A stretch of DNA of 64,000 nt from Spirochaetia bacterium. GTDB lineage: Bacteria > Spirochaetota > Spirochaetia > UBA9216. Shown piece after piece: positions 28,934 through 46,042 of this stretch. The stretch spans positions 96,001 through 160,000 of the forward strand of contig OZ223272.1 of the NCBI GenBank assembly GCA_965140585.1, in the 5' to 3' direction. The notes beneath the pieces are model-generated. The model was not told the origin of the DNA. It did not search any database and saw nothing but the letters and a program-made list of their open reading frames with translations. Position numbers and translations under genes: made by a program. Numbering within the stretch: position 1 is the first letter of the stretch; every line of letters begins with the position of its first letter.

Positions 28934-29974
28934 ATGGAGTTTATATATAACCAGGCAATTGATTTCATTTGTGCTGTTCTGCATTATGCACTCCGGAATG
29001 AAACCGCTGAAAAGAAAACATTCCTGGGTTTGAAAGGAATAGAATCTGTGCAGGAATGGATTGATATAACAGAGAAGAATATTTCACCTTTTCTTGAGAG
29101 TGATATTGAATTACTTGTGAAAAAAATACCTCAGACAAGCTGGCTTCTTATTGAAACTGTAATATCCAATGAAGGTTGCAGCACAGCAGCCGGGTTCCTG
29201 GATATTCTGAACAGCCTCACACCAGAGTATATACAGACCAGGATAAAAAACATTTTAAATCTTCCTCAGGACAAAGTAGTTTCGTATGAGAATATTTTAG
29301 CAATTCTGCCGGAGATTTCATCTTCAGAGAACTCACCTGAGGAAACTGCCAGACTCATCTCATCATTCCTCACTACTCCCGCAGACTTTCTCAAACGTCT
29401 TAAAAATCTGTATAAAATCTTCTATTCAGATTTCTACAGTCAGACAGAGATTAACAATAATGAGCAGATTAAAAGTCTTTTCATTTGGCATAAAGAAAGA
29501 TTTGAACAGGATGAAATCTCATATCTTAACGGTGCAACAAGGGAGCTCTTCAACAATTTCTTTGAGACTAAACAGGGGTTAAACTGTATCTATTTCTCAT
29601 TCTTTCTGGATACAAGTTCGTATCTTTCGACAGATATGCCCATGGTGATAATCGGAGCGGGAACAAAGGACATATTGAATAATCAATCCGACAACAGAAA
29701 AACAGACATACTGTTTTCTGTTCTTGGAGACAGCAAAAGACTTGAAATTCTGCGACTCGTTTCAATAAGACCCTGGTTCAGCAATGAACTGGCAACTCAT
29801 TTCAGAATAACCCCGGCGACAATGTCATATCATCTAAACAAAATGGTGTCATCGAGAATATTGAGTATAAAACCGGGTAGCGGCAGGCGCTATTACTATA
29901 TTGTTAATAAGCAAGAACTTGCCCGCTATCTTCAGGCTGCGAGCAGGGAACTTCTAAACACTGTATCAGTGTAA
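28934..29974 (+). CDS. ArsR/SmtB-family regulator with C-terminal HTH and long N-terminal domain
   Basis: FSVLGDSKRLEILRLV...ELATHFRITPATMSYHLNKM at the C-terminus. Confidence 0.8.
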   Translation: MEFIYNQAIDFICAVLHYALRNETAEKKTFLGLKGIESVQEWIDITEKNISPFLESDIELLVKKIPQTSWLLIETVISNEGCSTAAGFLDILNSLTPEYIQTRIKNILNLPQDKVVSYENILAILPEISSSENSPEETARLISSFLTTPADFLKRLKNLYKIFYSDFYSQTEINNNEQIKSLFIWHKERFEQDEISYLNGATRELFNNFFETKQGLNCIYFSFFLDTSSYLSTDMPMVIIGAGTKDILNNQSDNRKTDILFSVLGDSKRLEILRLVSIRPWFSNELATHFRITPATMSYHLNKMVSSRILSIKPGSGRRYYYIVNKQELARYLQAASRELLNTVSV

Positions 29975-29976
29975 AT

Positions 29977-31167
29977 TTACTTTATGATCATGTTGCGGCC
30001 ATTTTCTTTTGCGTAGTACAGCAGGTTATCTGCACGCTTAATCATCCGGTCAAAATCTTCACCGAAATTTTCCACTACACCGCCGCTCACGGTAACACAG
30101 AAGACATCATTGAAGTCCCAGCACATACATTCAATATTCTCTTTTATCCTGTTTGAAATAATGTAGGCATTTGCAAGATCCGTTTCCGGAAAGATCATCA
30201 GAAATTCTTCTCCCCCATACCTGCCGAAATAGTAGGACTCCCGCAGAGCCTCCTTAACTCTTTTAGAAATTTCAACAAGCACCTTATCTCCTGCTGGATG
30301 GCCGTATTTATCGTTTATATCCTTAAAAAATCTATATCAAACATTAATACTGATAATTTACTTTCGTAGCGGGTCGATCTGACAATCTCCTTTACCAAGG
30401 TATCTGAGATATATTTTCTGTTGTATATCCGGGTCAATCCGTCGATAATTGCCATCTGATGCAGAGTTAAAAGGGCTTCTTCGGCCGCATCTTCCTTAAT
30501 CTTCAAATCATCAATCATTGTATTAAGATAATTTGTTAGTTCGCCGAACCCGGTACCGTATTCAACTTCGATCTTTCCGGTTTCCCTGAAATTCCAGCTT
30601 TATATTATCTTTCCAACCGAATTGGACAGCTCAAGAATGCTGGAGCTTGTTCCATGCTCGGCAATATTCAGGACTATCTCCTTAAATGCCGGAGATACCC
30701 TCAGCGGAGAAAATCTGTTTATTATTTTCATCAGGAGGAGCGTTACCCCAGGCCCTGTGAACGAAAACCGGATATATAAATGCTGAAGTAAGAAAAGACA
30801 TCAGGTATGTGCTGAATTTCGAATACTCAGCTACCGCTCCTGAATCAATCGCAGCTGTTGTTCCGACAAAAACTGCCTGAAAAACAAAAAAGGCGGCCTT
30901 CCAGTTATCCATTTCAAAAATTCACAAAGAAGTCGCTTATACCTATGATTCCGTGAAATGATTCACCGAACATTAGCCGGAACCTATAAACCAGAAAGCC
31001 GCAACCGAAACAATAAAATCAGACATATTCTTGATTGCAACGTTAATTGACTTCATTGCCCGTGTAAGACCTGTCTCAAGAGCCATAAAGCCCGGCTGCA
31101 TCAGAAGAACAGGCCTGGCCGAGATAATAACCCAGAGAACATCACTCATGTTCTTCAACAGTATCAT
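29977..31167 (-). pseudogene. Decayed ammonium transporter (Amt) - HAMP-like - GGDEF diguanylate cyclase fusion
   Basis: Amt N-terminus (MQPGFMALETGLTR...NVAIKN), FFVFQAVFVGTTAAIDSGAVAE, IYPVF.H.AWG; jumps to the Amt C-terminus (PLRVSP...LNIAEHG); in-frame stop; GGDEF domain (DGLTRIYNR, DIDF, frameshift, INDKYGHPAGD, GRYGGEEF). Confidence 0.85.
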
Positions 31168-31297
31168 CCATAATCAGTATTTACTAATTTCTAGAAAAAT
31201 ATACCATTCCGACATTATTGTCGAACAGCTCATTTTTTAATACTATTTCGTATGATTTTTCTTGCTCACGACAGTTGTTCTGCATTATGATCTTAAT

Positions 31298-31558
31298 ATG
31301 GAAAGAGAAAAACTTCAAAAATACATTGAGGAACTCAGGGCAGAGCTAGAAAAACTGCAGGACAGCGATACCGAAGCCTCCTCACGCCTGAATACTCTAT
31401 TGAAAAATATCGAAACTTCCGTCGAAAACGATTTTCCGCATTCTGCGGAGATAGGAACATCCGTGCAGGATAACCTCAAATACTTTGAAGCGACCCACCC
31501 TGTTATCACCGAGGCACTTAACCGCATAGCGACCTTATTCAGCAATATGGGAATCTAA
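31298..31558 (+). CDS. DUF4404-like small helical protein
   Basis: L..L..EL...FEATHPVIT..LNRIATLFSNMGI C-terminal pattern. Confidence 0.75.
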   Translation: MEREKLQKYIEELRAELEKLQDSDTEASSRLNTLLKNIETSVENDFPHSAEIGTSVQDNLKYFEATHPVITEALNRIATLFSNMGI

Positions 31559-31686
31559 GTTCGTATCACTTCTTAATTTTTAATACCCCTTAAATAAAGA
31601 TAATAAAATATCTTAATACTATTGACACAATTCTGTTTAGGTATTATTTTATCGATATATTAAGACCGGTTATTGAGAGGTATAAA

Positions 31687-32211
31687 ATGACTCAGAAAAT
31701 AAACCAAGCAAAACTCATGGAATTCATGCTGACAGAAGAAGGCCTGCACTTTGAATCAAATGAAGACTGGAACGTAATAGCCGAGCACGTGAACGTTCAT
31801 CATCAGTTTCTGATTGAACAGCTGGGCGGATATGTAACTTACAGCCAGGCACTTTACTCCTGGTATGAGAACATCTACGAGGCGCTGAAACTCGGTATTG
31901 AAATCAGCAACCTCAATTTGAAGTTTAATAAAATGAGCTCAGGCGAACTTTACATTGCTGTTTCTGATCACTGGTACAACCTTAAAGTAAACAACCCAGA
32001 AATTAACGCTGTTGAGGCTGTAAAAGATTATGCAGCTCTGAACAAGCCCGAAAAAAGAAGTATTATCCGCAATATTATTGAAAATACTGCAGAAATGTAT
32101 TCAATACCCAGAAACACCTTTGCGGATGTATTTATTACAGCGGTTTACGGAAATCTCACCGTAAAGCCAAAGACCAAAAGAACATTCACCGGAAGAAAAC
32201 GCGCTGCTTAA
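31687..32211 (+). CDS. Hypothetical protein with DUF4032-like domain
   Basis: EHVNVHH, ALYSWYENIY, ELYIAVSDHWYNLK, AVKDY; TTGACA promoter and GAGAGG RBS. Confidence 0.6.
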   Translation: MTQKINQAKLMEFMLTEEGLHFESNEDWNVIAEHVNVHHQFLIEQLGGYVTYSQALYSWYENIYEALKLGIEISNLNLKFNKMSSGELYIAVSDHWYNLKVNNPEINAVEAVKDYAALNKPEKRSIIRNIIENTAEMYSIPRNTFADVFITAVYGNLTVKPKTKRTFTGRKRAA

Positions 32212-32273
32212 TACTGACTACTTGAAAATATAAAGGGTGGTTCTAAGCTGAAGATTTATATTATATTTAAGCT

Positions 32274-32879
32274 ATGAGCAATGAAAACGGAAACAGAAAG
32301 ATTCTGACGGCAATCACAGGAGCCAGCGGCTCAATATATGCACTCAGACTTTTAGAGGAACTGTGGAAAGCCGGATGTGATATTCACCTCGTGTTCTCAG
32401 AAACCGGAGCAGATGTCTTCAAGTTCGAAACAGATATTGATGCTGCAGATATAATCGGGTGGATTGAAAATATTAGTTCGCAGGGCTCTCCGGCCATATC
32501 AGTGCACGATAATAAAAACCTCTTCGCAGGCCCTGCAAGCGGATCATTTGGAATAGAATCGATGGTGATAGTTCCATGCAGCATGTCCACACTCGGATCG
32601 GTTGCAAACGGAACTCTTCAGACGCTTATCGGCAGGGCGGCAGATGTCTGCCTGAAGGAAAAACGGCAGCTCATCACCGTGCCGAGAGAAACTCCATACA
32701 ACCGAATCCACATGAAGAATATGCTGGCACTCGATGAGGCCGGCGCAACTATTCTGCCTGCATCCCCCGGTTTCTACACCCAGCCCCGCACTCTCATTGA
32801 TGCAGTCAATTTTGTAACAGCCAGAATCCTGGACCACCTAGGCATCGAAAACAGCCTGAGCAAACGCTGGGGAGAGTAA
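32274..32879 (+). CDS. ubiX: Flavin prenyltransferase UbiX
   Basis: AITGASGSIY, ASGS, VPCSMSTL, RAADVCLKEKR.L..VPRETP, PASPGFY. Confidence 0.95.
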   Translation: MSNENGNRKILTAITGASGSIYALRLLEELWKAGCDIHLVFSETGADVFKFETDIDAADIIGWIENISSQGSPAISVHDNKNLFAGPASGSFGIESMVIVPCSMSTLGSVANGTLQTLIGRAADVCLKEKRQLITVPRETPYNRIHMKNMLALDEAGATILPASPGFYTQPRTLIDAVNFVTARILDHLGIENSLSKRWGE

Positions 32880-32965
32880 CCGCCTGTTTTTCAGAGCACA
32901 GATTTTTTTACTTGAATATGATTCTAACGGCATGAATTATCTCATGATGCGGCGGCACAGACTTA

Positions 32966-33510
32966 ACCAATGTAACTTTCAATTCAGCTTCGAATGCCGG
33001 AAAGATTTCCGGACGGATAACTCAGAAAACTACGGAATCTAAAAGCTCAATCAGCGAACTCGATGCTGTGTAAGCAGTCTTGGAACAAGACTTACAGTTC
33101 TCACACCTATATCATTTACTCTGCCTCCGGGCTTCCCCCTTCTTGCAGGAATGATAGGTACCGGAAAGGGTGAGAAATTATGGGATATTCCATTTCAGAC
33201 AGCCTATAATTACAATGATGCAGATAGTCTGGAAGACACAATGAATGTCGATTTTGTAGCTGATGTTCCATCTATGATTACAGCCGAGACCTGGCTTGGC
33301 GTCAATGATTCATTAGAATTGAAGATTGATCCAGGCGAGATTGAAACATCATCTTTTACAGGAATCGAGACATTTAACCTCACATTAGAACCCTATATTA
33401 CAGTGGATGTTCCAGGTTACACAGTCGACGAATGGTCGGATATTGAAGAAACAGATATCAGTACAGGAGACCCTACCGGTAGATATTCTATCCAATTGAT
33501 TCTGGGATAA
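32966..33510 (+). pseudogene. Probable remnant of an exported acidic protein gene (frameshifted, 5' end lost)
   Basis: ORF 33151-33510 extends upstream without a start (SSLGTRLTVLTPISFTLPPG); an adjacent frame gives TNVTFNSASNAGKISGRITQKTTESKSSISELDA before a stop at ~33071. Confidence 0.4.
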
Positions 33511-33550
33511 ATTCAGTCTCACAGCAGAATAGATATCAGCCAATACATAC

Positions 33551-33574
33551 GGCCGGAAACATTCACTTCCGGCC
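33551..33574. terminator. Hairpin between convergent genes
   Basis: GGCCGGAA-loop-TTCCGGCC. Confidence 0.55.
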
Positions 33575-33583
33575 ATATTTACT

Positions 33584-34207
33584 CTATTTGCACTGAAACC
33601 TCAGAACCGTTTTAAGCTTGGCAGGCTCCGTCTTCCGTGCATCTGACAGATATATCTCACGGTGATTCTTTGACAGCCGTTCAACACCAATGCTTTCAGC
33701 ATACTCTTCCATCATAGCAAAGCTTTCCGGTTCATCATCATAGGGACCATTGTGCAGCATCTGAATGCATTGCCCTTCTGCCAGAGTTTGGAAATCTGCC
33801 TTATCCAGAAGTTCATGAGGCTTGTTTTTCTTTACACGTTCTATCGTTTCCAGAGCATACTCATCAGTCACAAAATCAGGTTGACGAATCATCAGGGTAA
33901 AAGCCAGCTGATCCTTATCCAGACTTCCGCTATAATCGGCAATGCCCTTCTCAGTCAGGCTCCACACCCCCTCAAGCGGATAAACTGTATATTCGAAATA
34001 TCCCTCCGGCGCTAACCCCTTCTTCGGACTCATCCGGACAGCATATGACAGCGAGTAAAGAACACCGATATATTCACCGAAAGCCGCATCATTGGGGTTT
34101 CCTTCCCCGCTGACAGTGAAAAATTTCATTTCGGGGATTTCAATAATTTCCGGTTTATTTTTAGGAAGGTAAAACTGCTTTTCCTGTTTTTTCCATTCAT
34201 GTTTCAT
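33584..34207 (-). CDS. GyrI-like small-molecule-binding domain protein
   Basis: GEGNPN, VYPLEGVW, MIRQPDFVT, EGQCIQMLH.GPYDDE, HREIYLSDARKT.P.KLKTVLR. Confidence 0.88.
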   Translation of the reverse strand: MKHEWKKQEKQFYLPKNKPEIIEIPEMKFFTVSGEGNPNDAAFGEYIGVLYSLSYAVRMSPKKGLAPEGYFEYTVYPLEGVWSLTEKGIADYSGSLDKDQLAFTLMIRQPDFVTDEYALETIERVKKNKPHELLDKADFQTLAEGQCIQMLHNGPYDDEPESFAMMEEYAESIGVERLSKNHREIYLSDARKTEPAKLKTVLRFQCK

Positions 34208-34245
34208 ATTTTTCACTCCTGTTAAAACGAGGATAATACAGTATA

Positions 34246-34265
34246 TACGACAGCACTATGTCATA
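34246..34265. promoter_or_regulatory. Palindromic operator upstream of the GyrI-like gene
   Basis: TACGACA-gcacta-TGTCATA. Confidence 0.5.
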
Positions 34266-34286
34266 GTTAAAAATTATTATTGTTTT

Positions 34287-34946
34287 TTATAACTCATCAT
34301 GTTCGAGAAAGGAATAATAGCCCTTAGTATTAAAGATGATATGATCAAGAAAATTAAGCCTTAACATATCAGATGCATTCTGAAGCATTCTGGTGACTCT
34401 AAAATCTTCATCACTTGGTAAAATTTCACCTTGCGGATGATTATGTGCAACAATTATGGCAGAAGCCCTTTCAGATAAGACATCAGCAAAAACTTCCCTG
34501 GGATGTACTTGCGTTTTGTTAACAAGGCCAATGGTGACAACACGAATACTCATTACTTCATGAGCCCCATTTATGGAAACACAAAGAAAATGTTCCTGTT
34601 TTCTGTCGGAGTAATGCTGTATTAAAGGCAGAACATCTGCCGGGAACTTAATTTTCAAACCTTCAGGTTTAATTCGTCTTCTTACAAACTCAAAAGCTGC
34701 ATCTATTGTTGCAGCCTTCGCAGAACCAATACCATTAACATCAATTATATCATTAGCCGAAAAAGAAAGTCCTTTTTCATCGATAATTTTAACGATTTTA
34801 CTGGATAATGATAGAACATCCTCATTTTTCGATCCCTTACCAAGAATAATTGCAAGTAATTCCTGGTCTGATAATGATGATGAGCCGCTATGAAGAAGTT
34901 TTTCTCTGGGACGATCGGCAAGTGGAATATCTTTTATTCGTTTCAT
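34287..34946 (-). CDS. radC: RadC-family JAB/MPN domain protein (full length)
   Basis: DRPREKL, LSDQELLAIIL, GIGSAKA, QEHF, VHPREVF, AHNHPQG..PS.ED, LDHII. Confidence 0.92.
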   Translation of the reverse strand: MKRIKDIPLADRPREKLLHSGSSSLSDQELLAIILGKGSKNEDVLSLSSKIVKIIDEKGLSFSANDIIDVNGIGSAKAATIDAAFEFVRRRIKPEGLKIKFPADVLPLIQHYSDRKQEHFLCVSINGAHEVMSIRVVTIGLVNKTQVHPREVFADVLSERASAIIVAHNHPQGEILPSDEDFRVTRMLQNASDMLRLNFLDHIIFNTKGYYSFLEHDEL

Positions 34947-34947
34947 T

Positions 34948-35967
34948 TCAGGAGGAGATTTTTTCAGGAATAAAGATTATATCTTTGCTGCTGTAGACTT
35001 CCACCACCTGTCCTGATAGATAGGAATCATCAAATATTACAAAATTATCACCTGAGCCAAGAGAACTTTTAAAGATAATCCCGTCATACCCGTTATCTTT
35101 GATTAATTCGCAGAGGTATTGTGTAGGTAAGTACTCAAAATCTTTCATATAAGGAAGAACCGGGATAGAAAGTGCTACACTAAGGTGATTAAGAAATGGA
35201 ATAAACTCAGTATAAATCATAGATAAATCATCATGCACGAATGGAGAAATGCTTTTTCCAGGGTTTCTTAAATCAATCATTTTTAAATTATTATCAAGAG
35301 AAAAAGAAGCTACATATACAATTTCGCTCTTATACGGTCTGGTCTCTGAAATAGCAGTAGTTACATCACTTGCACCATAGAAATATGAGATGCCCTTCGG
35401 GTTTGCCCTCCCATCTGGGGCTTTTCCTTCAGGAGGTTTTCCCATCTTATCTATCGAGTATGGACTACCATCGCCTTTCAACCTGGCTCTATAAATATAA
35501 TCAGGAATACAACTCTTATCTAATTCCAAATACCCGATAAGCAGTATTAATTGTTCCTGCTCTATTTTCTTCTGAGGGAAGAAGCGATTCCGATGCCGTA
35601 ATTCCCTGGAAAACTCTTCCCAATTTTTAATAAATTGACTTTCGACATTTTCAGGGGCTTTTACTTTCAATTGAATCAGGTTTTCATCATCCATTATACT
35701 GGTTAATAATTGCTCAACAACAGTACTATCTAAAGATTCATTAAAGATATGCCAGTCTTCCTGAAGTAAACCTGCAAGAGGAAGGCCGTCCTCTGAAACT
35801 TGATAAAAATCAATGACGGGTAGAAACAGATCCATCAATTCAACTGCATTTATAAATGAAACTGAGGCTGTACTATTGCAAAAAGAGCATGTGCCCCTGT
35901 TAGTCGAAAAGGTTTCGATATGTCTTTTGATAAAACTATCGTTAAAACAATCAGGACAGCATAACAC
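34948..35967 (-). CDS. RES domain protein (NAD+ phosphorylase/ART-fold) with N-terminal CxxC...CxxC
   Basis: CPDC...CSFC; IYRAR, GRANPKGISYFY, TAISETRP, EYLPTQYLCELIK, GYDGIIFKSS. Confidence 0.88.
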   Translation of the reverse strand: MLCCPDCFNDSFIKRHIETFSTNRGTCSFCNSTASVSFINAVELMDLFLPVIDFYQVSEDGLPLAGLLQEDWHIFNESLDSTVVEQLLTSIMDDENLIQLKVKAPENVESQFIKNWEEFSRELRHRNRFFPQKKIEQEQLILLIGYLELDKSCIPDYIYRARLKGDGSPYSIDKMGKPPEGKAPDGRANPKGISYFYGASDVTTAISETRPYKSEIVYVASFSLDNNLKMIDLRNPGKSISPFVHDDLSMIYTEFIPFLNHLSVALSIPVLPYMKDFEYLPTQYLCELIKDNGYDGIIFKSSLGSGDNFVIFDDSYLSGQVVEVYSSKDIIFIPEKISS

Positions 35968-35968
35968 C

Positions 35969-36922
35969 TTAGTTTATTCCCCTTAGATATTCAGCAACCA
36001 GTTCAACATGGTGCTGCATCGAAAGCTTTTTTACATATCCTAAACCTGGGAAATGTTTATGTTCGAAAAGTTTGAGATATTCACCAAGAGCCCTGGATTT
36101 AAAAATCTTTGAATCAGGTCTGTAAACTTCATCAACCAGTTTCTGCAGGGCTTCAAGAAACTTACCGCCGGGATTGGTGGGAGAATCGGTCTGATCTGAT
36201 ATGAAATGATAAATAAACATGTCATCATCCTTATCATCATCAATATAAGTCAGATGAATTGCCACAGCATAGGCGGGTCCTCCGGAATCACGGAATTCAT
36301 CTCCCACAATCAGAAAATCACCGAAGCCATCCATCCCTTCATCCGGAAAAGTAATGTGCAGATCAGAGAAATGCTCGAACGGAGGATACTGGGAGTTTTT
36401 CTTCTGTATACGAAACCCGTCCCGAATGAGAATTCGCTGTACACCTTCCTGTTTAAACTGTCTCTGATAAAGCTTGCTTGTCTGTTCCTCAATAAAAACA
36501 TGTCTCTTGATACTCATATTCCCATCAACGACTTTTACCAAATCCTTACCGTTGGTATAACCGTAATGGATTAATGATACATTGCGGTGCTGTTTACCCT
36601 CAAGAAATCCAGTTAGTTCATCTAATTCTGATCCGGCATGTAAAACAAAACCAAGTGATGTAACTTTATTATCCTTCATAATTTCATCAAGTAAATCATC
36701 GGGAATAATCTCATGGGAGCTGTAATCGCCAACCTGCGGATTAACTACAAGTGTATGCACAACTCCATTTTTTACCAACTCGGATACGGCTTTTAACAAG
36801 GCCGTCGAACTGAACTTTACAGGTTCGATTATGGGATGTATGTAATTTTCCTTAAAAAAAGCAGCATTACCCCGAAGCAGAATCAGCTCATTCTGCTTTC
36901 CTCTTAGAAACGGATAGTACAT
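35969..36922 (-). CDS. sce7725-family protein (beta-protein-like)
   Basis: MYYPFLRGKQNEL, PIIEPV, DGFRIQKKN..YP, GFGDFLIVG, GGPAYAVAIH, HFPGLG.VKKLSMQHH. Confidence 0.85.
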   Translation of the reverse strand: MYYPFLRGKQNELILLRGNAAFFKENYIHPIIEPVKFSSTALLKAVSELVKNGVVHTLVVNPQVGDYSSHEIIPDDLLDEIMKDNKVTSLGFVLHAGSELDELTGFLEGKQHRNVSLIHYGYTNGKDLVKVVDGNMSIKRHVFIEEQTSKLYQRQFKQEGVQRILIRDGFRIQKKNSQYPPFEHFSDLHITFPDEGMDGFGDFLIVGDEFRDSGGPAYAVAIHLTYIDDDKDDDMFIYHFISDQTDSPTNPGGKFLEALQKLVDEVYRPDSKIFKSRALGEYLKLFEHKHFPGLGYVKKLSMQHHVELVAEYLRGIN

Positions 36923-36932
36923 TAATTACTCC

Positions 36933-37826
36933 CTATTCTGATATAACAATTTTTCTTACCTCTGCATCATATTTATCTGATAAAGCATTCAGCTTTTGTA
37001 AATTACCTGCATTATTAATAATATAAGCATACAAAGATTCCGGAGCTCTATTCAGTAAGGTTTCAATTGCAGATTTCTTATCACGATTTTTAAGAACATC
37101 AAAGGTTTTGTCATGGATGATTTCAGGATCCTGACGGCAGAACATTGCCCTGCATTCATCGAATATCCGGGTATTGGGAACATCAGGAACGTAGCCGTAA
37201 ATACTTTTTATAACTTCAAGATACTCATTCTTTCTTAAAGAATTGAACAGAAATTCGGGTCTAACATTATGTTTATTGGAGATAGATATTTTATGGATTT
37301 GAATCGTACAATCATCTGAAATACATAATATTCCAACATGAGCGGGCAATTTCCCATCCAGTTGCTCAGTCTGAGCCTGTGAGGTAACAACATATATATT
37401 ATCAAAAACATTACCATAGGCTTCAATCTGATCATCAAGCCGCCTGAAAGAATCAAACTGCGATTTAATTTCGTAGACAGTTGAAGTACCGTTTAAAATA
37501 ACAACATCAGCCCGGCGCTTTCCTACACGGAATTCGTTAAGCATCCAAGAGTTCTGAAGTGAATGTCTTTTTAATAGCAGTTCCCTGGTAATTTCATTTT
37601 TATAAAGATATTCATTTCGGTAATTCAATGAAAGAAGGCTATAAATATCGTTTAGAAATGAACGAAACGACTGTGAAAGATCGATTCTATTTATCAGATT
37701 GCTGTTTTGAAGCACTTCATACAGATAATCGGAGAATCCATTCTCAGCTATCTTATCAAGAACAAGGGGAGTAAAAATTCGGCTTAGCGGGTTTAAATAA
37801 CAGGGATCAACGACTAAATCAGACAA
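36933..37826 (-). CDS. sce7726-family protein, PD-(D/E)XK nuclease-like
   Basis: YRNEYLYKNEI, EFRVGKRRADVVILNG...YEIKS..D...RL..Q...Y..VFD; TTG start with AAGGAGG RBS. Confidence 0.85.
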   Translation of the reverse strand: MSDLVVDPCYLNPLSRIFTPLVLDKIAENGFSDYLYEVLQNSNLINRIDLSQSFRSFLNDIYSLLSLNYRNEYLYKNEITRELLLKRHSLQNSWMLNEFRVGKRRADVVILNGTSTVYEIKSQFDSFRRLDDQIEAYGNVFDNIYVVTSQAQTEQLDGKLPAHVGILCISDDCTIQIHKISISNKHNVRPEFLFNSLRKNEYLEVIKSIYGYVPDVPNTRIFDECRAMFCRQDPEIIHDKTFDVLKNRDKKSAIETLLNRAPESLYAYIINNAGNLQKLNALSDKYDAEVRKIVISE

Positions 37827-37893
37827 TTACCGGCCTCCTTTTGTTCAATGATAATTACGATGCTGTTCTTTATTTAAATTATACCATCACTAA

Positions 37894-39204
37894 TTACTTT
37901 TTCGATCTTTTAGTTGATTTCTTAACAGCCTTTAATTCTGCTTCCATCTTTGCCTTCTCTTCCATTATTCGTTCCAGCAGTCTCTCAGCGGGTTCATCAT
38001 TTGGATCCTGCGGCACAAGCTCGCCCCGAAAAGCCTTGGCAAGAACAGACTGAGAAAGCTTATCAACTCTTGACTTTGCTTCATTGTAATGAGCTTCGAC
38101 CTTATCCGCCAGAGCAAAGAGTTTATCAACCTGTTTCACGATTTCTTTTTGTTCCTCGAGGGGAGGGAGATAAATTGACGTATCCATTACTATTGCTTGA
38201 TTAATTTTTGGCATACTTCCAGCAGTGCCAGTAGCATTACTTCGAAAATAATCAAGAGTTTGATAACTTTGTAGCGACAAGACAAGAAAAGAAGGTAATA
38301 CTAATTCTTTATTAGCTTTAACTTTCATCATAAGATCAGGATATATAAATTCATAACTGTTTCCGTTATAGATTGCTGAAATACCCACATAATTAATTGA
38401 ATTACTTCGCTGTATTAAAATATCATCTTTTTCTAACCATAAATAAGAATCATTTTGTATATCTTCATCAATATATTTAAAACAAGAACTATCAAATGTT
38501 CCTGATGTTGTCGCAGTAAGGCTAAGTGATTTAACTGGAGTTTCATACTTCACTGCAGTTGGGGAATATCCATTTCTAGGTTTGCCAATGATGATATCAA
38601 TAAGTGGTACTACTTTAGATTCTACCTCGGTATGCTCTTCCCGCCACTTCTCAGTTAGCCTTCCAGTTACTGCTGCTGTCAAGACTGATTGCCGGTAGCG
38701 TTTCATAATAACAGGAACCTTCTCCAACCGCTCTTTCACTGTCTCAATCCGTGGCATAATAGAATCAAGCTTGGCTACAATACGTTTTTGCTCGTTAAGG
38801 GGAGGGAATAAAATCGAAAAACCTACTAAATTTTCAATTGTTACCTGTGGTTGTGCAGTGCCTGTAACAATAGTGCTTTTATCACTATTGTATAATGAAT
38901 AATACAAAAACTTATTACAATTATAATACTCAGCAGGTAATTCTATAATAAGAGAATTAGATGTTATGTAACACTTTGGAGGTGAAATATTTATAACACC
39001 ACTATTTGCTCCACGACAAGATATTAATACTTGGGGTTTTTCATATAGGTATTCATTATAATACCCAATAATCGAGTTGGCGCCAAAAACTGGATATTTA
39101 CCAATATCATATAGTTGATTTTTAGACAAACCTTTCCCGTAAGCAATATTTGCTATCTTAGTAATTGCGACTTCAACCCATCCGCTCGGAAGGCCCTCAC
39201 TCAT
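37894..39204 (-). CDS. hsdS: Type I restriction-modification specificity subunit
   Basis: LPSGW; two AT-rich TRDs each followed by PPLNEQKRIV / PPLEEQKEIV; SVLAKAFRGELVPQDPNDEPA. Confidence 0.95.
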   Translation of the reverse strand: MSEGLPSGWVEVAITKIANIAYGKGLSKNQLYDIGKYPVFGANSIIGYYNEYLYEKPQVLISCRGANSGVINISPPKCYITSNSLIIELPAEYYNCNKFLYYSLYNSDKSTIVTGTAQPQVTIENLVGFSILFPPLNEQKRIVAKLDSIMPRIETVKERLEKVPVIMKRYRQSVLTAAVTGRLTEKWREEHTEVESKVVPLIDIIIGKPRNGYSPTAVKYETPVKSLSLTATTSGTFDSSCFKYIDEDIQNDSYLWLEKDDILIQRSNSINYVGISAIYNGNSYEFIYPDLMMKVKANKELVLPSFLVLSLQSYQTLDYFRSNATGTAGSMPKINQAIVMDTSIYLPPLEEQKEIVKQVDKLFALADKVEAHYNEAKSRVDKLSQSVLAKAFRGELVPQDPNDEPAERLLERIMEEKAKMEAELKAVKKSTKRSKK

Positions 39205-40646
39205 TCAGTTTCCTCCGCCTCAATCTCATCCAGTATCAGCTGTAGCTCATCAACACAGGCGCTAAGTTCGGTAATGGCATCCGCAACCAATAGCTGCGGG
39301 TCGGGCAGTGAATTGGGATCTTCAAGGTTTTCATCCTTCAGCCAGCTAATATCGAGGTTGAAGTTACGATCTTTAATCTGTGAATAAGCAAATTTTCTGA
39401 ACCGGCCTTCTTCGCCAAGATCTTTACGCCTGGACTGCCCGTTTGGATCTTCGCCATAACAGACTTCAAAGTCCTCAAACATGGCCGGAGTAAGAGGTCT
39501 GTCCTTCTTTGTTACTCCGGGAATATTGGTGCGGCAGTCATATATCCAGGTTTCTTCTGTCTTAAGTCCTTTCTGAAAGAAGAGAACGTTTGCCTTTACT
39601 CCCTGACTGTATGGGGTGAATGTGCCATTGGGAAGACGCAGTACCGTATGTACATTGCAGTCTTCCATCAGGTACTTGATAACATCTCCTGCCTGGTCTG
39701 CAAAAAGAACGTTATCCGGTAAAACCATAGCAGCCCGTCCGCCGGGTTTTAGAATAGTAACAACATGCTGAATAAAATTAAGCTGCTTGTTACTGGTGCT
39801 CACTGTAAAATCATCACGGACCGGGGCCTGGTTTGCTCCCTTTGTTCCAAAAGGAGGATTAGTCAGAATACAGTCATAGCGTTCGCCTCGATCCGGCTCA
39901 TAGATGCTGTCTCCAAGATAGATCTGCGGTTCCAGCCCATGCAGAAAAAGATTCATTAGAGCAAGTCTCCGCGGTCTGGGAACCAGTTCCTGACCATAGT
40001 AGGTTTCTTTTTTTATTCTAAGCACGTCCTTACGTTCGAGAGCACCTTTGGTTATTTCCATAAGCCACTCATAAGCAGCCATCAAAAATCCTGATGTCCC
40101 GCAGGCTGGGTCACATATCTTGTAATCTTTGGCAGTTCTTGGGTCAGGCTGCATAACCTTTATAATAGATTGAATAAGAGGCCGCGGGGTAAAATACTGC
40201 CCTGCCCCCTTCTTGCCTTCTGCCGCGGACCTCTCAAGCAGGCCCTCAAAGGCTGCACCCTTTACATCAACATCCATTGAAGACCAGTCTTCTTCATCTA
40301 TCATATTGATAACGCGTTTAAGGTTTACCGGATTGGTAAAACGGGGCATAGCCTGTGTAAAAATATCTCCAAGAAGGCCGGATTGTCTGCTTAAAGCCCT
40401 TAGAATCTGAGAAAAGGCATCAAGCAGCTCGGTACCAGATTTTTCAGTAAAGGGTGTCCAGGAACAATCAAGAACTATTTTCTCTTTGTTCTCTTCATAT
40501 TCAACTTTAGATAGGTCAATTCCCTTCTCATGTGACATCTTTAGAAACATAAGATAGGTAAGCTGTTCGATATAATCACCGTAATCAATACCGTCATGGC
40601 GTAGGGTACTGCAGAACCCCCAGAGTTTATTTACTACATCCGACAT
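39201..40646 (-). CDS. hsdM: Type I R-M N6-adenine methyltransferase
   Basis: GAGQYFTPR, DPACGTSGFL, TNPPFG, VLPDNVLF, LRLP.G.F. Confidence 0.95.
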   Translation of the reverse strand: MSDVVNKLWGFCSTLRHDGIDYGDYIEQLTYLMFLKMSHEKGIDLSKVEYEENKEKIVLDCSWTPFTEKSGTELLDAFSQILRALSRQSGLLGDIFTQAMPRFTNPVNLKRVINMIDEEDWSSMDVDVKGAAFEGLLERSAAEGKKGAGQYFTPRPLIQSIIKVMQPDPRTAKDYKICDPACGTSGFLMAAYEWLMEITKGALERKDVLRIKKETYYGQELVPRPRRLALMNLFLHGLEPQIYLGDSIYEPDRGERYDCILTNPPFGTKGANQAPVRDDFTVSTSNKQLNFIQHVVTILKPGGRAAMVLPDNVLFADQAGDVIKYLMEDCNVHTVLRLPNGTFTPYSQGVKANVLFFQKGLKTEETWIYDCRTNIPGVTKKDRPLTPAMFEDFEVCYGEDPNGQSRRKDLGEEGRFRKFAYSQIKDRNFNLDISWLKDENLEDPNSLPDPQLLVADAITELSACVDELQLILDEIEAEETE

Positions 40647-40659
40647 GTTAATTCCTTAT

Positions 40660-43329
40660 TTAAGCTGCAAGAGTTGTGTTTATTTCATTGATCAATGATT
40701 CAAAATCAGTCCCAAAAATCTGTTTTGCCTTGGATAATCCGCCGTGACGTTCAAAAACCGGCATTATTTCAAAATCTTCACTTGAAATAGCAAGGTTTTC
40801 TATCAAGTGCTCTTTGATATAGGCAAGCCATTCAAGCTGTTCGTCATTAAAAGCATGGGCATTAACAATTTTACCGACAGCCTTTTCTACCCTTTCCTTT
40901 GCAGAAAACAACAGATCTTCCTCATTGGAGGCATGTTTTATCATTGATATGATATCGGCAAGTGGTTTTTTATAAACCAACTCATGCCCTCGCTGCAGAT
41001 CTCTTTCTGAAAAATCACTCTTTTTGAGCTTATCACGCAGCTCATCAAGAGCATCAGTATTCCATCCGGATGGTCTGGAAAGAAGGATCTCAATTGCGTC
41101 TATATGTTCCGGATTATTCCGTACAAACTCATCAAAGAGCTTCAGATAATCTTCAGGTTTTTGGTAATCTCCACCAACGCGGAATAAAACTTCATGCTCA
41201 ACTGTGTCTTTGATATCATATCCCTTTAAAAAGATCTTCCCCGGACGAGGATAATCTTCCAGCAGCTTCTGAAAATCCTTGTTCCTGAGAAGGTTCATGG
41301 TTTCAGTAAAGTTATTTTTAAGATTTTCTTTTAACCCATCGGCAAAAGCCTTTATATCACCGTCCGGAATATATTTCGAAAAAGCTTCCCGTGCTTCTGC
41401 ACCCATGTTGTTCTCAATCCGGCGCAGCCTTTTTATAAGCCTGCTGGTATTATAATCTCTGTCACGGTTATCATAGATACGTTCAATGATTTCGCTTATC
41501 GGAACTGTTTCACTCTGGATGTTGACCTTGAAATCGGTTGTGTTTTTAAAATATTCAATCAAACTGCCGTCAAAGCAATCGAAGATAGTAAACTTTTCCT
41601 TATGGATTTCAGGACATTTGCGGGTTCCCCGCCCCAGCATCTGAACCCACATGATACGTGATTTGACGACACGCATAAATACAACCATTTCTATAGCCGG
41701 AATATCGACACCTGTTGTAAGCATATCAACTGTTACGACAATCTTAGGTTCGGGACGGTTTCGGAACTGACGAATCTTCTGTAATGGACGGTCAACAGTA
41801 GGGCTGCCAGTTATCTTCATTACAAAATCATCACCCTTCCCAAAGATTTCTTTGCATGTATTCACTACTTCATCGGCATGCGAAACGTGCGGCAGGTCAT
41901 TTACAGCAAAGATCAGCATTTTAGGAAAGCGATGGTATTTTTGTTCATGCTCATCTGTATAGACTTTGATAGCAGTGATTATTTTTCTGATACTGTCAGG
42001 CGAGGTGATTTTCTGCTCTATCTCACCGGCACTGAATTCCCGTTCATCCTCCAGCTCATCAAGCTGTTCGGCACCAGTTACCGTATCAATTTCACCAACC
42101 AGTTCACCCTCTTTCAGAAAAGCACCGTTGATATGGATATCTGATTTAATCTTGACCGCATCGTAATCAACTAAATGCCCCTGAAGAACAGCCTGCTCAG
42201 TGCTGTATGTAAACACCTTGTTCTTAAACAAAGCCAGAGTATGAGTTGCAGGAGTAGCTGTAAGCCCAATCTTAACCGCATCAAAATAATCCATGACATA
42301 CTTCCAGCGCCCCGTCTCTTTAGCAGAATAGCCTCGGTGGCATTCATCGGCAATGATTATATCGAAAGTATTAATAGGTATATCCAGCTTGTTTGCTTCT
42401 ACATCATACTCAAAATCGCTTACGGCTTCTTTACCCAAAAGGTTTATAGACATCCTCTGAATTGTAGAGACGTAGATGAATGCATGCTTTTCCTGGGGAT
42501 TTGTTAGATAGGCTTCCGGTAAGACCTGCGGATCAAACTTTGTATCTTCATCAAGATCTTCACGTTTAAATTTCTGACTGTAAACCTCATAATCCTGATT
42601 TAATTTTAAGCCTTCCGGTGTTTCAAAGGCACAGATAGCCGAAACTGCCTGTGCCGCAAGGGCCCGCCTATCAACAAGAAAGAGAATACGCTTTGCATAA
42701 CCTGATTTAAGTAAACGGTAAATTGATGAGACCAGAGTGAATGTCTTACCTGTACCGGTAGCCATTGCGATTAGCATAGTTTTTTTGCCGTTGCAGATTG
42801 CATTTTCAATAGCCTCAACTGCCTCAATCTGGTAAGGACGCAGCCTGGATATTTCTGAAACCGGCCGTTCATCAAACCATTTTTCAGACTGTTCAATATC
42901 ACGGTTGTATTTATCAAGCAGCGCCTGCGGAGAATGAAAATCTGCTATCTGATAAGAGTTATTTTCTCTCTTTCTTACATCAAGATGAAAAATAAGCTCT
43001 CCGTTTGTTGAATATAAAAAAGGAACCTTATATTCCCTCCACTGACCGACTGTCTCAGGGACACCCTTAGAATAGCGCTTTGCCTGTTCAAGAACATTTT
43101 CAGCCCCGACAGATAATTTCTTCGCTTCTATAATTCCAAGCAGCTTTCCCTGCACAAAAAGCGCATAATCAGCAGGGCCAGTCTCAGTTGGATATTCTTC
43201 AACAGCATGGGCAGATAAAGCGGATATGTCCATTCCATTGAAGAATGGCACAATTTCCCAGTTAAGCAGTGGCGAAGTTAGTTTCGTATCTATTCTTTTC
43301 TTTCGGGTTTTAGCTTCTGATTCATTCAT
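40660..43329 (-). CDS. hsdR: Type I R-M restriction subunit
   Basis: ADY...IEAK nuclease motif, LRPYQ, MATGTGKT, DECHRG, GLTATP, MLTTGVD, QMLGRGTR. Confidence 0.95.
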   Translation of the reverse strand: MNESEAKTRKKRIDTKLTSPLLNWEIVPFFNGMDISALSAHAVEEYPTETGPADYALFVQGKLLGIIEAKKLSVGAENVLEQAKRYSKGVPETVGQWREYKVPFLYSTNGELIFHLDVRKRENNSYQIADFHSPQALLDKYNRDIEQSEKWFDERPVSEISRLRPYQIEAVEAIENAICNGKKTMLIAMATGTGKTFTLVSSIYRLLKSGYAKRILFLVDRRALAAQAVSAICAFETPEGLKLNQDYEVYSQKFKREDLDEDTKFDPQVLPEAYLTNPQEKHAFIYVSTIQRMSINLLGKEAVSDFEYDVEANKLDIPINTFDIIIADECHRGYSAKETGRWKYVMDYFDAVKIGLTATPATHTLALFKNKVFTYSTEQAVLQGHLVDYDAVKIKSDIHINGAFLKEGELVGEIDTVTGAEQLDELEDEREFSAGEIEQKITSPDSIRKIITAIKVYTDEHEQKYHRFPKMLIFAVNDLPHVSHADEVVNTCKEIFGKGDDFVMKITGSPTVDRPLQKIRQFRNRPEPKIVVTVDMLTTGVDIPAIEMVVFMRVVKSRIMWVQMLGRGTRKCPEIHKEKFTIFDCFDGSLIEYFKNTTDFKVNIQSETVPISEIIERIYDNRDRDYNTSRLIKRLRRIENNMGAEAREAFSKYIPDGDIKAFADGLKENLKNNFTETMNLLRNKDFQKLLEDYPRPGKIFLKGYDIKDTVEHEVLFRVGGDYQKPEDYLKLFDEFVRNNPEHIDAIEILLSRPSGWNTDALDELRDKLKKSDFSERDLQRGHELVYKKPLADIISMIKHASNEEDLLFSAKERVEKAVGKIVNAHAFNDEQLEWLAYIKEHLIENLAISSEDFEIMPVFERHGGLSKAKQIFGTDFESLINEINTTLAA

Positions 43330-43406
43330 TTATAGACTTTTCCTATCTGGTTGAAATACAAACCAAAAAGAATTATACCAAATATTCATCAGATATTGAA
43401 ATCAAA

Positions 43407-43454
43407 AATCCTCTAAAATCGCTCCCCGCCCTTACCTGATATAATTCGTGGCCA
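43407..43454 (+). repeat. 48-bp direct repeat, copy 1
   Basis: AATCCTCTAAAATCGCTCCCCGCCCTTACCTGATATAATTCGTGGCCA. Confidence 0.9.
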
Positions 43455-43476
43455 CCCCTCTCCCCCTATAAGAGGC

Positions 43477-43839
43477 CTAAACAACAAGACGCTTCCATTC
43501 AAGGCTTGAGACCTGAAAGTTTACAAGTAAACCAAGTTTGCAGCCTGAAATATGCAGATAATTGATAAGCTGGGCAGTGTGTTCAGGGGCCAACGTCTTT
43601 ACAGACTTGAGTTCTATAATTACTTTGTTTTCTACAACAAGATCAGCAAAATACTCACCTACCGTTTCCCCCCTGTATTTAACTGTAAACGGAACATTGT
43701 ACCCCGTACTTAAACCAGCAGCCTTTAGCTCATAATAAAGCGCATTATGATAGCACTGCTCAAGCAGCCCGGGGCCAAGCCCACTGTGAACTGCCATACA
43801 GCAGCCGATAATTTGAAAAGAAAGCTCTTTGTGAACCAT
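43477..43839 (-). CDS. GxxExxY protein (PD-(D/E)XK nuclease superfamily)
   Basis: VHSGLGPGLLEQCY, ADLVVENKVIIELK, QLINYL...GLLVNF; AAGGAGG RBS before MVHKELS. Confidence 0.92.
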   Translation of the reverse strand: MVHKELSFQIIGCCMAVHSGLGPGLLEQCYHNALYYELKAAGLSTGYNVPFTVKYRGETVGEYFADLVVENKVIIELKSVKTLAPEHTAQLINYLHISGCKLGLLVNFQVSSLEWKRLVV

Positions 43840-43847
43840 ACCGGTCC

Positions 43848-43970
43848 TCCTTCGTTTTCTTTCCGTAAATACGAAGTTCACTTTTTCGGAGGTCAAGGAT
43901 TTGCCGAAGGCAAACTTGCTGCAGTCCTTGACCGGAGAAAAATGAACAGTAAAATTAAAAGAACGAAGGA
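43848..43970. repeat. ~123-bp imperfect nested palindrome (REP/MITE-like) overlapping the GxxExxY RBS
   Basis: TCCTTCGTT/AACGAAGGA, GTTCA/TGAAC and GGTCAAGGA/TCCTTGACC arms; inner TTTGCCGAAGGCAAA hairpin. Confidence 0.75.
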
Positions 43971-44010
43971 ACCATATTGAATAGCCTGGCCCTCCCTTCT
44001 CCCGCTCCTC

Positions 44011-44058
44011 AATCCTCTAAAATCGCTCCCCGCCCTTACCCGATAAAATTCGTGGCCA
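44011..44058 (+). repeat. 48-bp direct repeat, copy 2
   Basis: 46/48 identical to 43407-43454. Confidence 0.9.
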
Positions 44059-44147
44059 AGGATTCTACAAATTAATCACCAAATACTACCCGCTATAGCC
44101 AGATACCTGCTTGCATCAACAATATTGTCTGACTAAAATCAGATAAT

Positions 44148-44996
44148 ATGAATAATATTGAGATTATGCGGGAATTCAACCGCACCGTAACCCGAAGCAT
44201 TGGTATATTCAACGGACAGTATCTCGGCCGGCCAAGGCCTCTGGCTGCCTCGCGATTAATCTATGAAATAGGCACACAAGGGGCGGAGATACGCTCACTG
44301 AGGGACAGGCTCGGCGTTGATTCAGGCTACATGTCACGCCTGCTTCGTATGCTTGAAAAGGAATCACTGATTAATATTGAACCGTCTCCAAAGGATCGAA
44401 GAATTCGGCAGGTCCAGCTGACCGGAGCGGGAATTCTTGAACTGAAGGAACTGAACAGACTTTCAGATCTTGAGATGACAACATTACTGAAAAAACTGCC
44501 TGAAAAAAAACAGCAGCTTCTTACCGAAGCAATGAAAACAGTCGAACAGCTGCTTGAAACAGCTGCTGTTCAATTGATAAGAGTCGAAGAATCTGATACC
44601 CGGGCCCAGAAAGCTCTTGAATCGTACTATTCTGAACTTTCAGACAGATTCGGGAGGCACTTCGATCCGGGACAAATGGAGAACGGTATATTTTTTATTG
44701 TGGAGCTTCATGGAGAAACAGTCGGATGCGGAGCTGTGGTGATGTATCCTGATTTTGCCGAGGTGAAAAGAATGTGGGTAGCTCCGTCATGCAGAGGCCG
44801 GGGAATCGCTTCAAAAATACTTACACAGCTTGAAGAAGAAGCCCTCCGGGCCGGACAAAAAACCGTCCGGCTGGATACCAACGATAATCTGAACGAAGCA
44901 AAGGCTATGTATCGCAGATACGGTTATCATGAAATTAAAAGGTATAATGACAATCCATTCGCTCAGCATTTCTATGAAAAGGTTATTGCGCCCTGA
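44148..44996 (+). CDS. MarR-type wHTH + GNAT acetyltransferase fusion
   Basis: LGVDSGYMSRLL...DRRIR..LT; AEVKRMWV..RGRGIA, RLDT, A.AMYRRYGY. Confidence 0.9.
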   Translation: MNNIEIMREFNRTVTRSIGIFNGQYLGRPRPLAASRLIYEIGTQGAEIRSLRDRLGVDSGYMSRLLRMLEKESLINIEPSPKDRRIRQVQLTGAGILELKELNRLSDLEMTTLLKKLPEKKQQLLTEAMKTVEQLLETAAVQLIRVEESDTRAQKALESYYSELSDRFGRHFDPGQMENGIFFIVELHGETVGCGAVVMYPDFAEVKRMWVAPSCRGRGIASKILTQLEEEALRAGQKTVRLDTNDNLNEAKAMYRRYGYHEIKRYNDNPFAQHFYEKVIAP

Positions 44997-44997
44997 A

Positions 44998-45540
44998 CTA
45001 TGCTAAAACTCTCTCCCGGTAGATAATATCCAGAGCTATTTCAATGGCCTTGGTTATCGCGACCCCGCAGGATGGATGTTTGATATTGTACTCATTTCCG
45101 TTTTCATTATCCATGCTAGGTACAAAATTCAGCTCCTCGGGCATATCCCAGCTGAAAGATTCAAGCTCAGACTCCAGTATGTCCTCACAGAGCGTAGTGC
45201 TCAGTAAATCCTTAAATCTTGCGACAAATTCCTCAGTAAGCTCCCCGAGCTTTTGATCACGGGCGGTTTCATCAGCATTCTTTTTCAAAGATTCCGCTCC
45301 GAATTCCAGCCCCAACGCTACTCCGGCGGCAGTAACAGCACCGCAAAGCTGCCCATGCCTCATCCCTCCGCCCATAGCGGCCATTATTTTAAGAGCCATA
45401 GACTCATCAAGACCGATATAAGGCGCTATCCCGCACAGACAGGCCTGTGAACAGTGATTATTAAGGCTCTTTGTCTGGAGCCCCAGGCTGCATGCCTTAT
45501 AAATTAATTCAGCTTTTTTACTCTCGACTAAATTTTCCAT
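44998..45540 (-). CDS. C-GCAxxG-C-C family putative redox-active protein
   Basis: HCSQA, GGGM...CGAVTA, LCEDI, C near the C-terminus. Confidence 0.8.
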   Translation of the reverse strand: MENLVESKKAELIYKACSLGLQTKSLNNHCSQACLCGIAPYIGLDESMALKIMAAMGGGMRHGQLCGAVTAAGVALGLEFGAESLKKNADETARDQKLGELTEEFVARFKDLLSTTLCEDILESELESFSWDMPEELNFVPSMDNENGNEYNIKHPSCGVAITKAIEIALDIIYRERVLA

Positions 45541-45545
45541 CTTAA

Positions 45546-45595
45546 AATCCTCTTAAATCTCTCCCAGCCCTTTCCAAATATACAATTCGTGGCTA
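45546..45595 (+). repeat. Diverged third copy of the 48-bp repeat
   Basis: AATCCTCTTAAATCTCTCCCAGCCCTTTCCAAATATACAATTCGTGGCTA; its AGAGGA end (minus strand) sits at the RBS position of the 45540 start. Confidence 0.75.
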
Positions 45596-45600
45596 AACCA

Positions 45601-46011
45601 CTATTTCCCCATATTCTCAAGAAAAGCGTACAAATCAGGGGCACGTTTTTTAAGGTTGATCACATTAAGATTCGTATCTGTCCAGCCGTGCATGGTCTTA
45701 CCGGTGGCAAGCAGTTCACCGTCATCCTTGCGTCTAACCTCATAGGCCATGGCAAATCTTGCTATCGTAAGTTTTTCAACAATACACTTAACGATGATTC
45801 TTTCACTGTATTTTGCGCCAGCCATGTAATCGCATTCAAGATGCGAAAGTGGAGTCATAATTCCCTCAGATTCTATTCTCGTATACGGGTATCCGGCTTT
45901 CTCAAGCATATCAGTTCGGGCAGCTTCAAACCATATGGGATATACAGAATGGTGAACGACACCCATCTGATCAGTCTCAGCATATCTAACAATTATTTCA
46001 GTTTCTGTCAT
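45601..46011 (-). CDS. Acyl-CoA thioesterase (YbgC/4HBT hot-dog family)
   Basis: VRYAETDQMGVVHHSVYPIWFEAAR. Confidence 0.9.
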   Translation of the reverse strand: MTETEIIVRYAETDQMGVVHHSVYPIWFEAARTDMLEKAGYPYTRIESEGIMTPLSHLECDYMAGAKYSERIIVKCIVEKLTIARFAMAYEVRRKDDGELLATGKTMHGWTDTNLNVINLKKRAPDLYAFLENMGK

Positions 46012-46042
46012 GCGCTGAGATTATCACGATTTTATTTGCCAG

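Follow-up and report, generated by a model that had tools for sequence, protein, structure and literature searches.

Within a 64,000-nucleotide stretch of the genome of a Spirochaetia bacterium (contig OZ223272.1, positions 96,001 to 160,000; the whole stretch is referred to here as the window), a type I restriction-modification (R-M) operon is followed on the minus strand by four further genes. The first three of these encode an sce7726-family PD-(D/E)xK nuclease-like protein, an sce7725-family protein and a RES-domain protein, and they are analysed here as a candidate anti-phage cassette together with the radC gene that follows them. The R-M operon consists of intact open reading frames (ORFs) with the characteristic domains of each subunit, namely hsdR (40660..43329, minus strand; 889 aa; ResIII 1.1e-36, EcoEI_R_C 2.2e-33, HSDR_N and Helicase_C), hsdM (39201..40646, minus; 481 aa; N6_Mtase 5.8e-61, HsdM_N 3.9e-10), and hsdS (37894..39204, minus; 436 aa; Methylase_S 8.4e-33, matched in two stretches). 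Downstream of hsdS, the ORF listing places gene 1 (36933..37826; 297 aa, TTG start), gene 2 (35969..36922; 317 aa), gene 3 (34948..35967; 339 aa), and gene 4, radC (34287..34946; 219 aa), all on the minus strand, with a spacing of 67 nt between hsdS and gene 1 and of 10, 1, and 1 nt between the successive genes, exactly as an earlier reading of this DNA (the original prediction) had described. A promoter-like site is found at the hsdS-gene 1 gap (37878..37905, minus strand), where TCGAAA and TATAAT are separated by 16 nt and the latter is preceded by TG, so that the site agrees with the consensus at 10 of 12 positions and has an extended -10, a consensus match only, and a good Shine-Dalgarno sequence, AAGGAGG, lies 7 nt upstream of the TTG start of gene 1. 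No terminator-like site was seen 3' of radC on the minus strand.

The motifs initially proposed for genes 1, 3, and 4 proved to be intact, and the assignment of gene 2 to the sce7725 family was confirmed. Gene 1 matches NF033832 (sce7726_fam) with 174 bits, against a cut-off of 70, and cII of satellite phage P4 falls in the same NCBIfam family (151 bits), the two proteins being 34% identical over their catalytic core (1e-15). Gene 1 was also recognized by the PADLOC 'cll' model (8.4e-23), the sole PADLOC match among the window genes searched. Its E...D...EIK...QxxxY PD-(D/E)xK motif is complete: in an alignment of 75 sequences including P4 cII, residues E98, D107, E119, K121, D125, R129, and Q133 do not vary, and 74 of the 75 have Y137. 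The P4 gop-beta-cII system to which cII belongs protects against lambda and P1, with Gop being toxic when beta is missing (Rousset et al. 2022, PMC9122126), and cell death by this system is triggered by the phage gene orf184 (10.1101/2023.04.06.535777).

Gene 3 combines a RES domain (PF08808, 9.4e-15) with HEPN_RES_NTD1 (PF18870, 1.4e-6). Seven residues are invariant in 42 homologues: C4, C7, C27, and C30, which form two CxxC pairs in an N-terminal Cys4 domain, and R160, E208, and S301, which we read as the R-E-S triad based on alignment position rather than structure. RES proteins are classical toxins of toxin-antitoxin (TA) modules, such as MbcT and ParT of the RES-Xre modules MbcTA and ParST. 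Gene 3 shares with these toxins the RES catalytic domain and its conserved R, E, and S, but differs from them in its additional Cys4 domain and in its partners, which are a predicted TIM-barrel protein (gene 2) and a nuclease-like protein (gene 1). As originally suggested, an Xre antitoxin is not part of this set: neither gene 1 nor gene 2 matches a helix-turn-helix (HTH) family.

Another counterpart of gene 3 is aRES, described in a preprint as a stand-alone, non-operonic RES + PF18870 protein that defends by depleting nicotinamide adenine dinucleotide (NAD+) during infection, yielding ADP-ribose-1''-phosphate (ADPR-1''-phosphate; Osterman et al., preprint 10.64898/2026.01.28.702374). Gene 3 carries both domains and, at 339 aa, lies within the 300–600 aa filter applied to aRES, although its domains were judged here by Pfam E-values whereas the preprint methods relied on hhsearch probabilities. 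By analogy, gene 3 would be expected to cleave NAD+ to nicotinamide and ADPR-1''-phosphate. An inspected stand-alone plasmid homologue is only 29% identical to gene 3 and about 500 aa long. No significant BLASTP similarity was obtained between gene 3 and P4 Gop, no PADLOC gop match was found, and a sequence-profile search of the PDB with the RES alignment returned nothing useful (best E 0.18).

Gene 2 matches NF033831 (sce7725_fam) over the entire profile (positions 1–312 of 312; 309.5 bits, cut-off 60), and no member of this family was found among 60 related genomes searched. Several lines of comparison connect gene 2 to P4 beta. Both proteins are of similar size and their predicted models are both TIM barrels, with a tRNA-guanine transglycosylase or DpdA among the longest structural alignments (230 and 266 residues of 1iq8 for the gene 2 and beta models, respectively), and the order of secondary-structure elements matches between the two, including a late hairpin followed by three helices. 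The top BFVD match of both models is the same viral protein, A0A5J6TRS2 (E 2.8e-3 and TMq 0.50 for gene 2; E 1.7e-12 and TMq 0.70 for beta). In addition, five invariant N-terminal residues occur with identical spacing in the gene 2 family (Y2/P4/R7/K9/E12) and in the beta family (Y10/P12/R15/R17/E20), and hhalign linked the two families with an E of 0.027, or 0.011 with larger alignments, compared to 0.25 and 0.33 for reversed and unrelated controls. Among named ESM clusters, PF14350 (Beta_protein; 0.76) is closest to gene 2, a proximity that we use as a lead only. Judging from these sequence and model comparisons, gene 2 is likely a homologue of P4 beta.

A purely computational preprint brings PF14350 together with TIM barrels that are relatives of deazaguanine transglycosylases as "TIM-B", includes RES, GNAT, and a restriction endonuclease of the gene 1 type among the effectors linked to these proteins, and proposes that TIM-B is a negative regulator working constitutively, with a nucleobase-transfer reaction predicted (10.64898/2026.10.19.760177). 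Because the list of effectors given there includes both RES and this type of nuclease, the three genes of the window would represent a variant of a known system. The resemblance of the predicted gene 2 fold to tRNA/DNA guanine transglycosylases could also be taken to mean that genes 1 and 2 form an R-M-like pair, in which sce7725, as an active transglycosylase-like enzyme, would mark the cell's own nucleic acid and DNA lacking the mark would be cut by sce7726, leaving RES as a separate backup toxin. Such a pair would be in line with the many His, Asp, and Glu residues that are invariant in the gene 2 family (43 sequences), with the intact nuclease motif of gene 1, and with the nucleobase-transfer reaction put forward for TIM-B. 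However, the TIM-B preprint itself prefers effector regulation over DNA marking, P4 beta neutralizes Gop without known DNA modification, and no deazapurine-synthesis genes were seen in the inserted island that holds the locus (see below), so that we consider a marking-and-cutting pair quite unlikely.

The structure of a possible complex, which the original prediction had proposed to model, provided weak support for binding between the products of genes 2 and 3. The predicted gene 2-gene 3 pair obtained a median score of 0.56, as opposed to 0.00 in the best of 3 controls, with at least 78% contact agreement between runs and a partner pLDDT of at least 83. Of 80 solved complexes, 58 reach the mark used for this score, as do 2 of 110 mismatched pairs, and scores that reach the mark without exceeding 0.60 were obtained for 7 of the 80 solved complexes and for both of the mismatched pairs that reach it. 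A direct contact between the two proteins is thus slightly favored by the model, which does not separate control by binding from enzymatic control.

To evaluate which of these genes belong together, we used a one-genome-per-species scan for relatives of gene 3, which turned up in at least 594 loci; neighborhood counts were made on the best 80 of these. An sce7725 gene is found directly upstream of RES, in the same orientation, in all 80 loci, and sce7726 precedes sce7725 in 76 of them, the exceptions being three contig ends and a remnant at L056. Genes 1–3 therefore constitute the strictly conserved unit that had been anticipated, and the arrangement is far from chance because 80 independent loci show this order of genes. 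Hosts come from many phyla, and the trio is also encoded on Shinella and Moraxella plasmids (RefSeq annotation), beside an integrase in an integrative and conjugative element (ICE) of Salmonella houtenae, and on a phage-labelled faecal scaffold. Downstream of the cassette, genes are highly variable, with no family seen in more than 2 of 68 cases (68 of 70 neighbors, very long ORFs at L036 and L054 being left out). Upstream, across 67 cassettes, the neighbor is a type I specificity subunit in 5 by PADLOC and in 4 by Pfam, and otherwise includes integrases (3), transposases, PglX, KwaB, and GmrSD once each, and housekeeping genes. Since the neighbors vary on both sides, the cassette ends at RES. 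Within the sce7725 family, one locus (L098:6532-8937) encodes sce7725 followed by a GNAT acetyltransferase in place of RES, preceded by a 295-aa ORF without Pfam match; this is an effector swap, in line with the effector swapping described in the TIM-B preprint. The scaffold carrying this locus is labelled Listeria phage, a label that is unverified.

The gene immediately downstream of RES in the window, radC, encodes a full-length RadC protein (RadC JAB domain PF04002, 2.8e-35; UPF0758_N, 2.7e-21; NF000642, 190 bits), with the JAB metal motif H168-N-H170...S178..D181 read from its sequence. It is a paralogue, as the genome contains a second full-length radC on contig C2 that is 49% identical to the window copy. 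RadC had been suggested as a recruited fourth part of the system, i.e., a JAB metalloprotease or nuclease integral to its function, for instance by processing or activating RES or sce7725. The 1-nt gap and shared strand of RES and radC could suggest such a role, as could the presence of radC after the cassette in 5 of the 80 genome loci (3 among the 67 whose downstream sequence extends for 700 nt or more, and 2 cut by contig ends) and in two metagenome loci. In L024, one of the genome loci, radC follows the cassette with no hsd gene within 5.4 kb upstream. The radC-linked rows are also scattered on a tree of gene 2 + gene 3 (FastTree, 75 rows, local supports; L020 and L053, with cut gene 2 or gene 3 matches, left out), where four rows correspond to four changes, equal to the shuffled mean, which is readable as repeated recruitment. 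However, radC is missing from 75 of the 80 cassettes, and divergence differs between the parts of these loci. Four of the five radC-linked cassettes share the same hsdRMS family (HsdM 80–89% and HsdR 69–79% identical), and the window RadC is 72–74% identical to that of L016, L020, and L053, whereas the cassette proteins of radC-linked loci are only 41–59% identical to those of the window, i.e., no closer than those of unlinked loci.

The association of this gene was settled by searching metagenomes with the window RadC. In 29 loci, RadC is at least 65% identical to it, and 23 of these were assessable. A co-oriented hsdS was found upstream of radC in 20 of the 23, directly adjacent with no more than 300 nt between the two genes in 10 and with other, unrelated genes in between in 9, while the cassette was present in only two (L115 and L116). 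Below 65% identity, hsdS was upstream in 3 of 28 assessable loci. This full-length RadC clade is the conserved last gene of one hsdR-hsdM-hsdS operon family, and because its linkage to hsdS holds with or without the cassette, radC closes a type I R-M frame rather than belonging to the cassette. The cassette itself is rarely found with R-M or radC, a co-occurrence that the original prediction had proposed to measure, and a four-gene system including RadC is highly improbable. In several metagenome loci (L139, L151–L153, L159–L160, and L165–L166), tblastn matches to radC came in two overlapping pieces, which suggests frameshifted or decaying copies in some R-M loci.

The interval between hsdS and radC is a variable defense slot that can be empty or filled (metagenome loci L102–L139; window 34287–39204). 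Besides the cassette, it can hold GmrSD (L105), an AAA_5 ATPase, YhcG/DUF1016 nucleases, Schlafen AlbA_2, UPF0158, and GIY-YIG, as well as AAA_21 + RloB in L123. In a Victivallaceae locus (L006:3785-9145), the same hsdRMS frame contains a GmrSD-type gene and the cassette together, with radC reduced to a 39-residue remnant adjoining valS. Type I R-M loci are known to carry embedded restriction-linked genes, namely the rlo genes and PrrC, an anticodon nuclease that depends on EcoprrI. The frame described here resembles these loci in having variable defense genes inside an hsd operon or at its end, with RloB among the cargo, but differs from them in having a conserved full-length radC paralogue as the boundary of the slot. 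A literature search combining RadC, type I restriction, and hsdS found no description of a radC-bounded slot by title or abstract.

This context raises the possibility that the cassette depends on HsdRMS in the manner of PrrC and EcoprrI, with RES being kept latent by the R-M complex and firing when a phage anti-restriction protein blocks that complex, much as the original prediction had envisioned in proposing a backup for inhibited restriction. The cassette does start 67 nt after hsdS, and the same hsdRMS family (HsdM 80–89%) flanks it in L006, L016, L020, L053, and L116. From published work, orf184, the trigger of gop-beta-cII, is located next to ral, an anti-restriction gene, in accessory regions of phages (10.1101/2023.04.06.535777), and embedded effectors in type I R-M operons have been proposed as second-line defenses (10.64898/2026.10.19.760177). 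Nevertheless, a type I specificity gene is immediately upstream in only 5 of 67 cassettes, most cassettes are found in contexts unrelated to R-M, the cassette has its own promoter-like site, and its phylogeny is not congruent with the hsdRMS frame. Given the rarity of the hsdS neighbor and the separate promoter-like site, coupling between cassette and R-M is optional, and strict dependence on HsdRMS appears very unlikely. What persists of the backup idea is the slot itself, which elsewhere holds R-M-embedded defense genes.

The whole arrangement was acquired as an island. Positions 29000–34269 and 44121–48900 of the window match contig C4 of a same-genus genome (G001) at 85–92% identity, with matches ending 38 bases apart and both junctions aligned to the empty site of G001. 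Since the flanks are adjacent in G001, the region of ~34270–44120, absent from that genome, is an insertion of about 9.85 kb, comprising radC, the cassette, hsdSMR, and, at the hsdR end, a small nuclease-fold gene (PDDEXK_3, PF13366, 5.5e-40; 43477..43896, minus strand). No integrase was seen at the island, no tRNA in the window, and no target-site duplication in the junction alignment. The PDDEXK_3 gene has no match in six related loci (L006, L016, L018, L020, L024, and L053) and was rejected as part of the shared block. Elsewhere in G001, four sites match it at 68–71% nucleotide identity, so that it may represent a small mobile or repeated gene family. Outside of the island, a 101-aa ORF at 29977–30282 matches only the C-terminal part of GGDEF (profile positions 59–160 of 161) and looks like a truncated diguanylate cyclase gene.

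Overall, our preferred explanation, to which we assign a probability of roughly 60%, is that genes 1–3 form a self-contained abortive-infection or defense cassette of the P4 gop-beta-cII/TIM-B type, carried as cargo between hsdS and radC. The cassette and gop-beta-cII have in common a nuclease-like protein of one NCBIfam family with shared invariant catalytic residues, a protein of similar size predicted to fold as a TIM barrel, and a three-gene layout with a toxic effector, toxicity being a prediction for the cassette. They differ in the effector, RES here as opposed to the small Gop protein in P4. The original combination of a nuclease-like protein, a P4-beta-like protein, and an NAD-targeting RES protein is thus plausible by family and predicted fold. 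A further relevant system is PD-lambda-2, whose third component, PD-lambda-2C, is related to a P4 phage antitoxin and is needed for defense but not for toxin neutralization (Vassallo et al. 2022, PMC9519451), which provides a precedent for a beta-like protein exceeding the role of antidote. The other parts of PD-lambda-2 are HigB-like and HigA-peptidase proteins, and in this respect it differs from the window genes, for which 'cll' was the only PADLOC match.

We infer that the activities, the silencing step, the trigger, and the anti-phage function of the cassette could be connected as follows. The RES protein would be an NAD+ phosphorylase of aRES architecture that, once released, depletes NAD+ and arrests the infected cell. 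In uninfected cells, it would be silenced by the sce7725 TIM-barrel protein, either through direct contact or through a product or modification made enzymatically, and, by analogy with PD-lambda-2C, sce7725 may also be required to switch defense on. The sce7726 protein may serve as a second effector or as a nucleic-acid sensor. The cassette itself would be cargo of a mobile hsdR-hsdM-hsdS-[slot]-radC operon that arrived as the 9.85-kb island.

Several observations weigh against this explanation. For gene 2, PF14350 gave no match, nor did any other Pfam family at E <=0.01, and PF14350 was absent from the precomputed Pfam annotation of all 120 listed homologues. BLASTP found no significant match between gene 2 and P4 beta, and hhalign aligned only 49 N-terminal columns of the two families with a probability of 1.8–3.7%, global mode or a low mact bringing no gain beyond this N-terminal match. 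P4 beta itself was not among the best 50 BFVD matches listed for gene 2, Foldseek found no match for gene 2 in the PDB at E <=0.001, and a PDB sequence-profile search with the sce7725 alignment gave nothing useful (best E 1.5). Residues 169–217, the most conserved stretch of the family with numerous invariant G, D, H, E, and P, have an AlphaFold pLDDT below 50 and might form a lid over the active site or a loop that binds a partner. The comparison with PADLOC models that had been suggested at the outset was informative for gene 1 only, as genes 2, 3, and 4 and a GyrI-like neighbor remained without match even at E 10. The cassette genes are co-directional with gaps of 1–10 nt, unlike P4, where cII is convergent and overlaps gop-beta, and all 80 RES homologues are operonic, unlike aRES as described. 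Housekeeping genes are among the varied immediate neighbors of the 80 cassettes, the main text of the TIM-B preprint names neither 'sce7725' nor 'NF033831', and a literature search for experiments on the sce7726-sce7725-RES trio found none, title and abstract matches being genome annotation. The original assertion that no mechanistic description exists accordingly stands, within the literature searched, for the exact trio but not for its parts, since NAD+ depletion by aRES has been published and TIM-B has been treated computationally.

The mobile contexts of the cassette (plasmids, ICEs, and islands) would also be compatible with an addiction, or toxin-antitoxin-like, module that stabilizes its carrier rather than defending against phages, especially as RES toxins are known from TA modules. 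Likewise, gop and beta act as a toxin-antitoxin pair (PMC9122126). On the other hand, relatives built of the same parts, namely gop-beta-cII, aRES, and PD-lambda-2, provide phage defense, the slot occupied by the cassette elsewhere holds restriction and Abi-type genes, and three genes with an intact nuclease motif exceed the needs of a TA pair. We thus regard an addiction module as unlikely.

A more specific version of the defense cassette can be tentatively entertained as one possibility, in which sce7725 would not be a simple protein antidote but would restrain RES enzymatically, through a covalent base-type modification or a small-molecule product, and in which hsdRMS-[slot]-radC would be a modular defense locus with RadC a conserved accessory of a type I R-M family, marking the end of a recombination slot that takes up second-line defense genes. 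If true, enzymatic restraint by sce7725 would arm an NAD+-depleting effector in a novel manner.

Genes 1–3 thus appear as a fixed, self-contained, and widespread candidate anti-phage cassette built of known parts. What this window adds is context, i.e., a mobile hsdRMS-[slot]-radC locus of which we found no description in literature searched by title and abstract. The cassette is common (at least 594 loci) and joins an effector predicted to phosphorolyse NAD+ to the two least understood parts of gop-beta-cII, and may therefore provide a convenient model for toxin control by TIM-barrel "beta" proteins and for the role of cII-type nucleases. The outcome for radC, meanwhile, removes a false lead and exposes a natural experiment, in which one R-M frame is combined with interchangeable second-line cargo, so that a backup role of such cargo for restriction can be tested directly.

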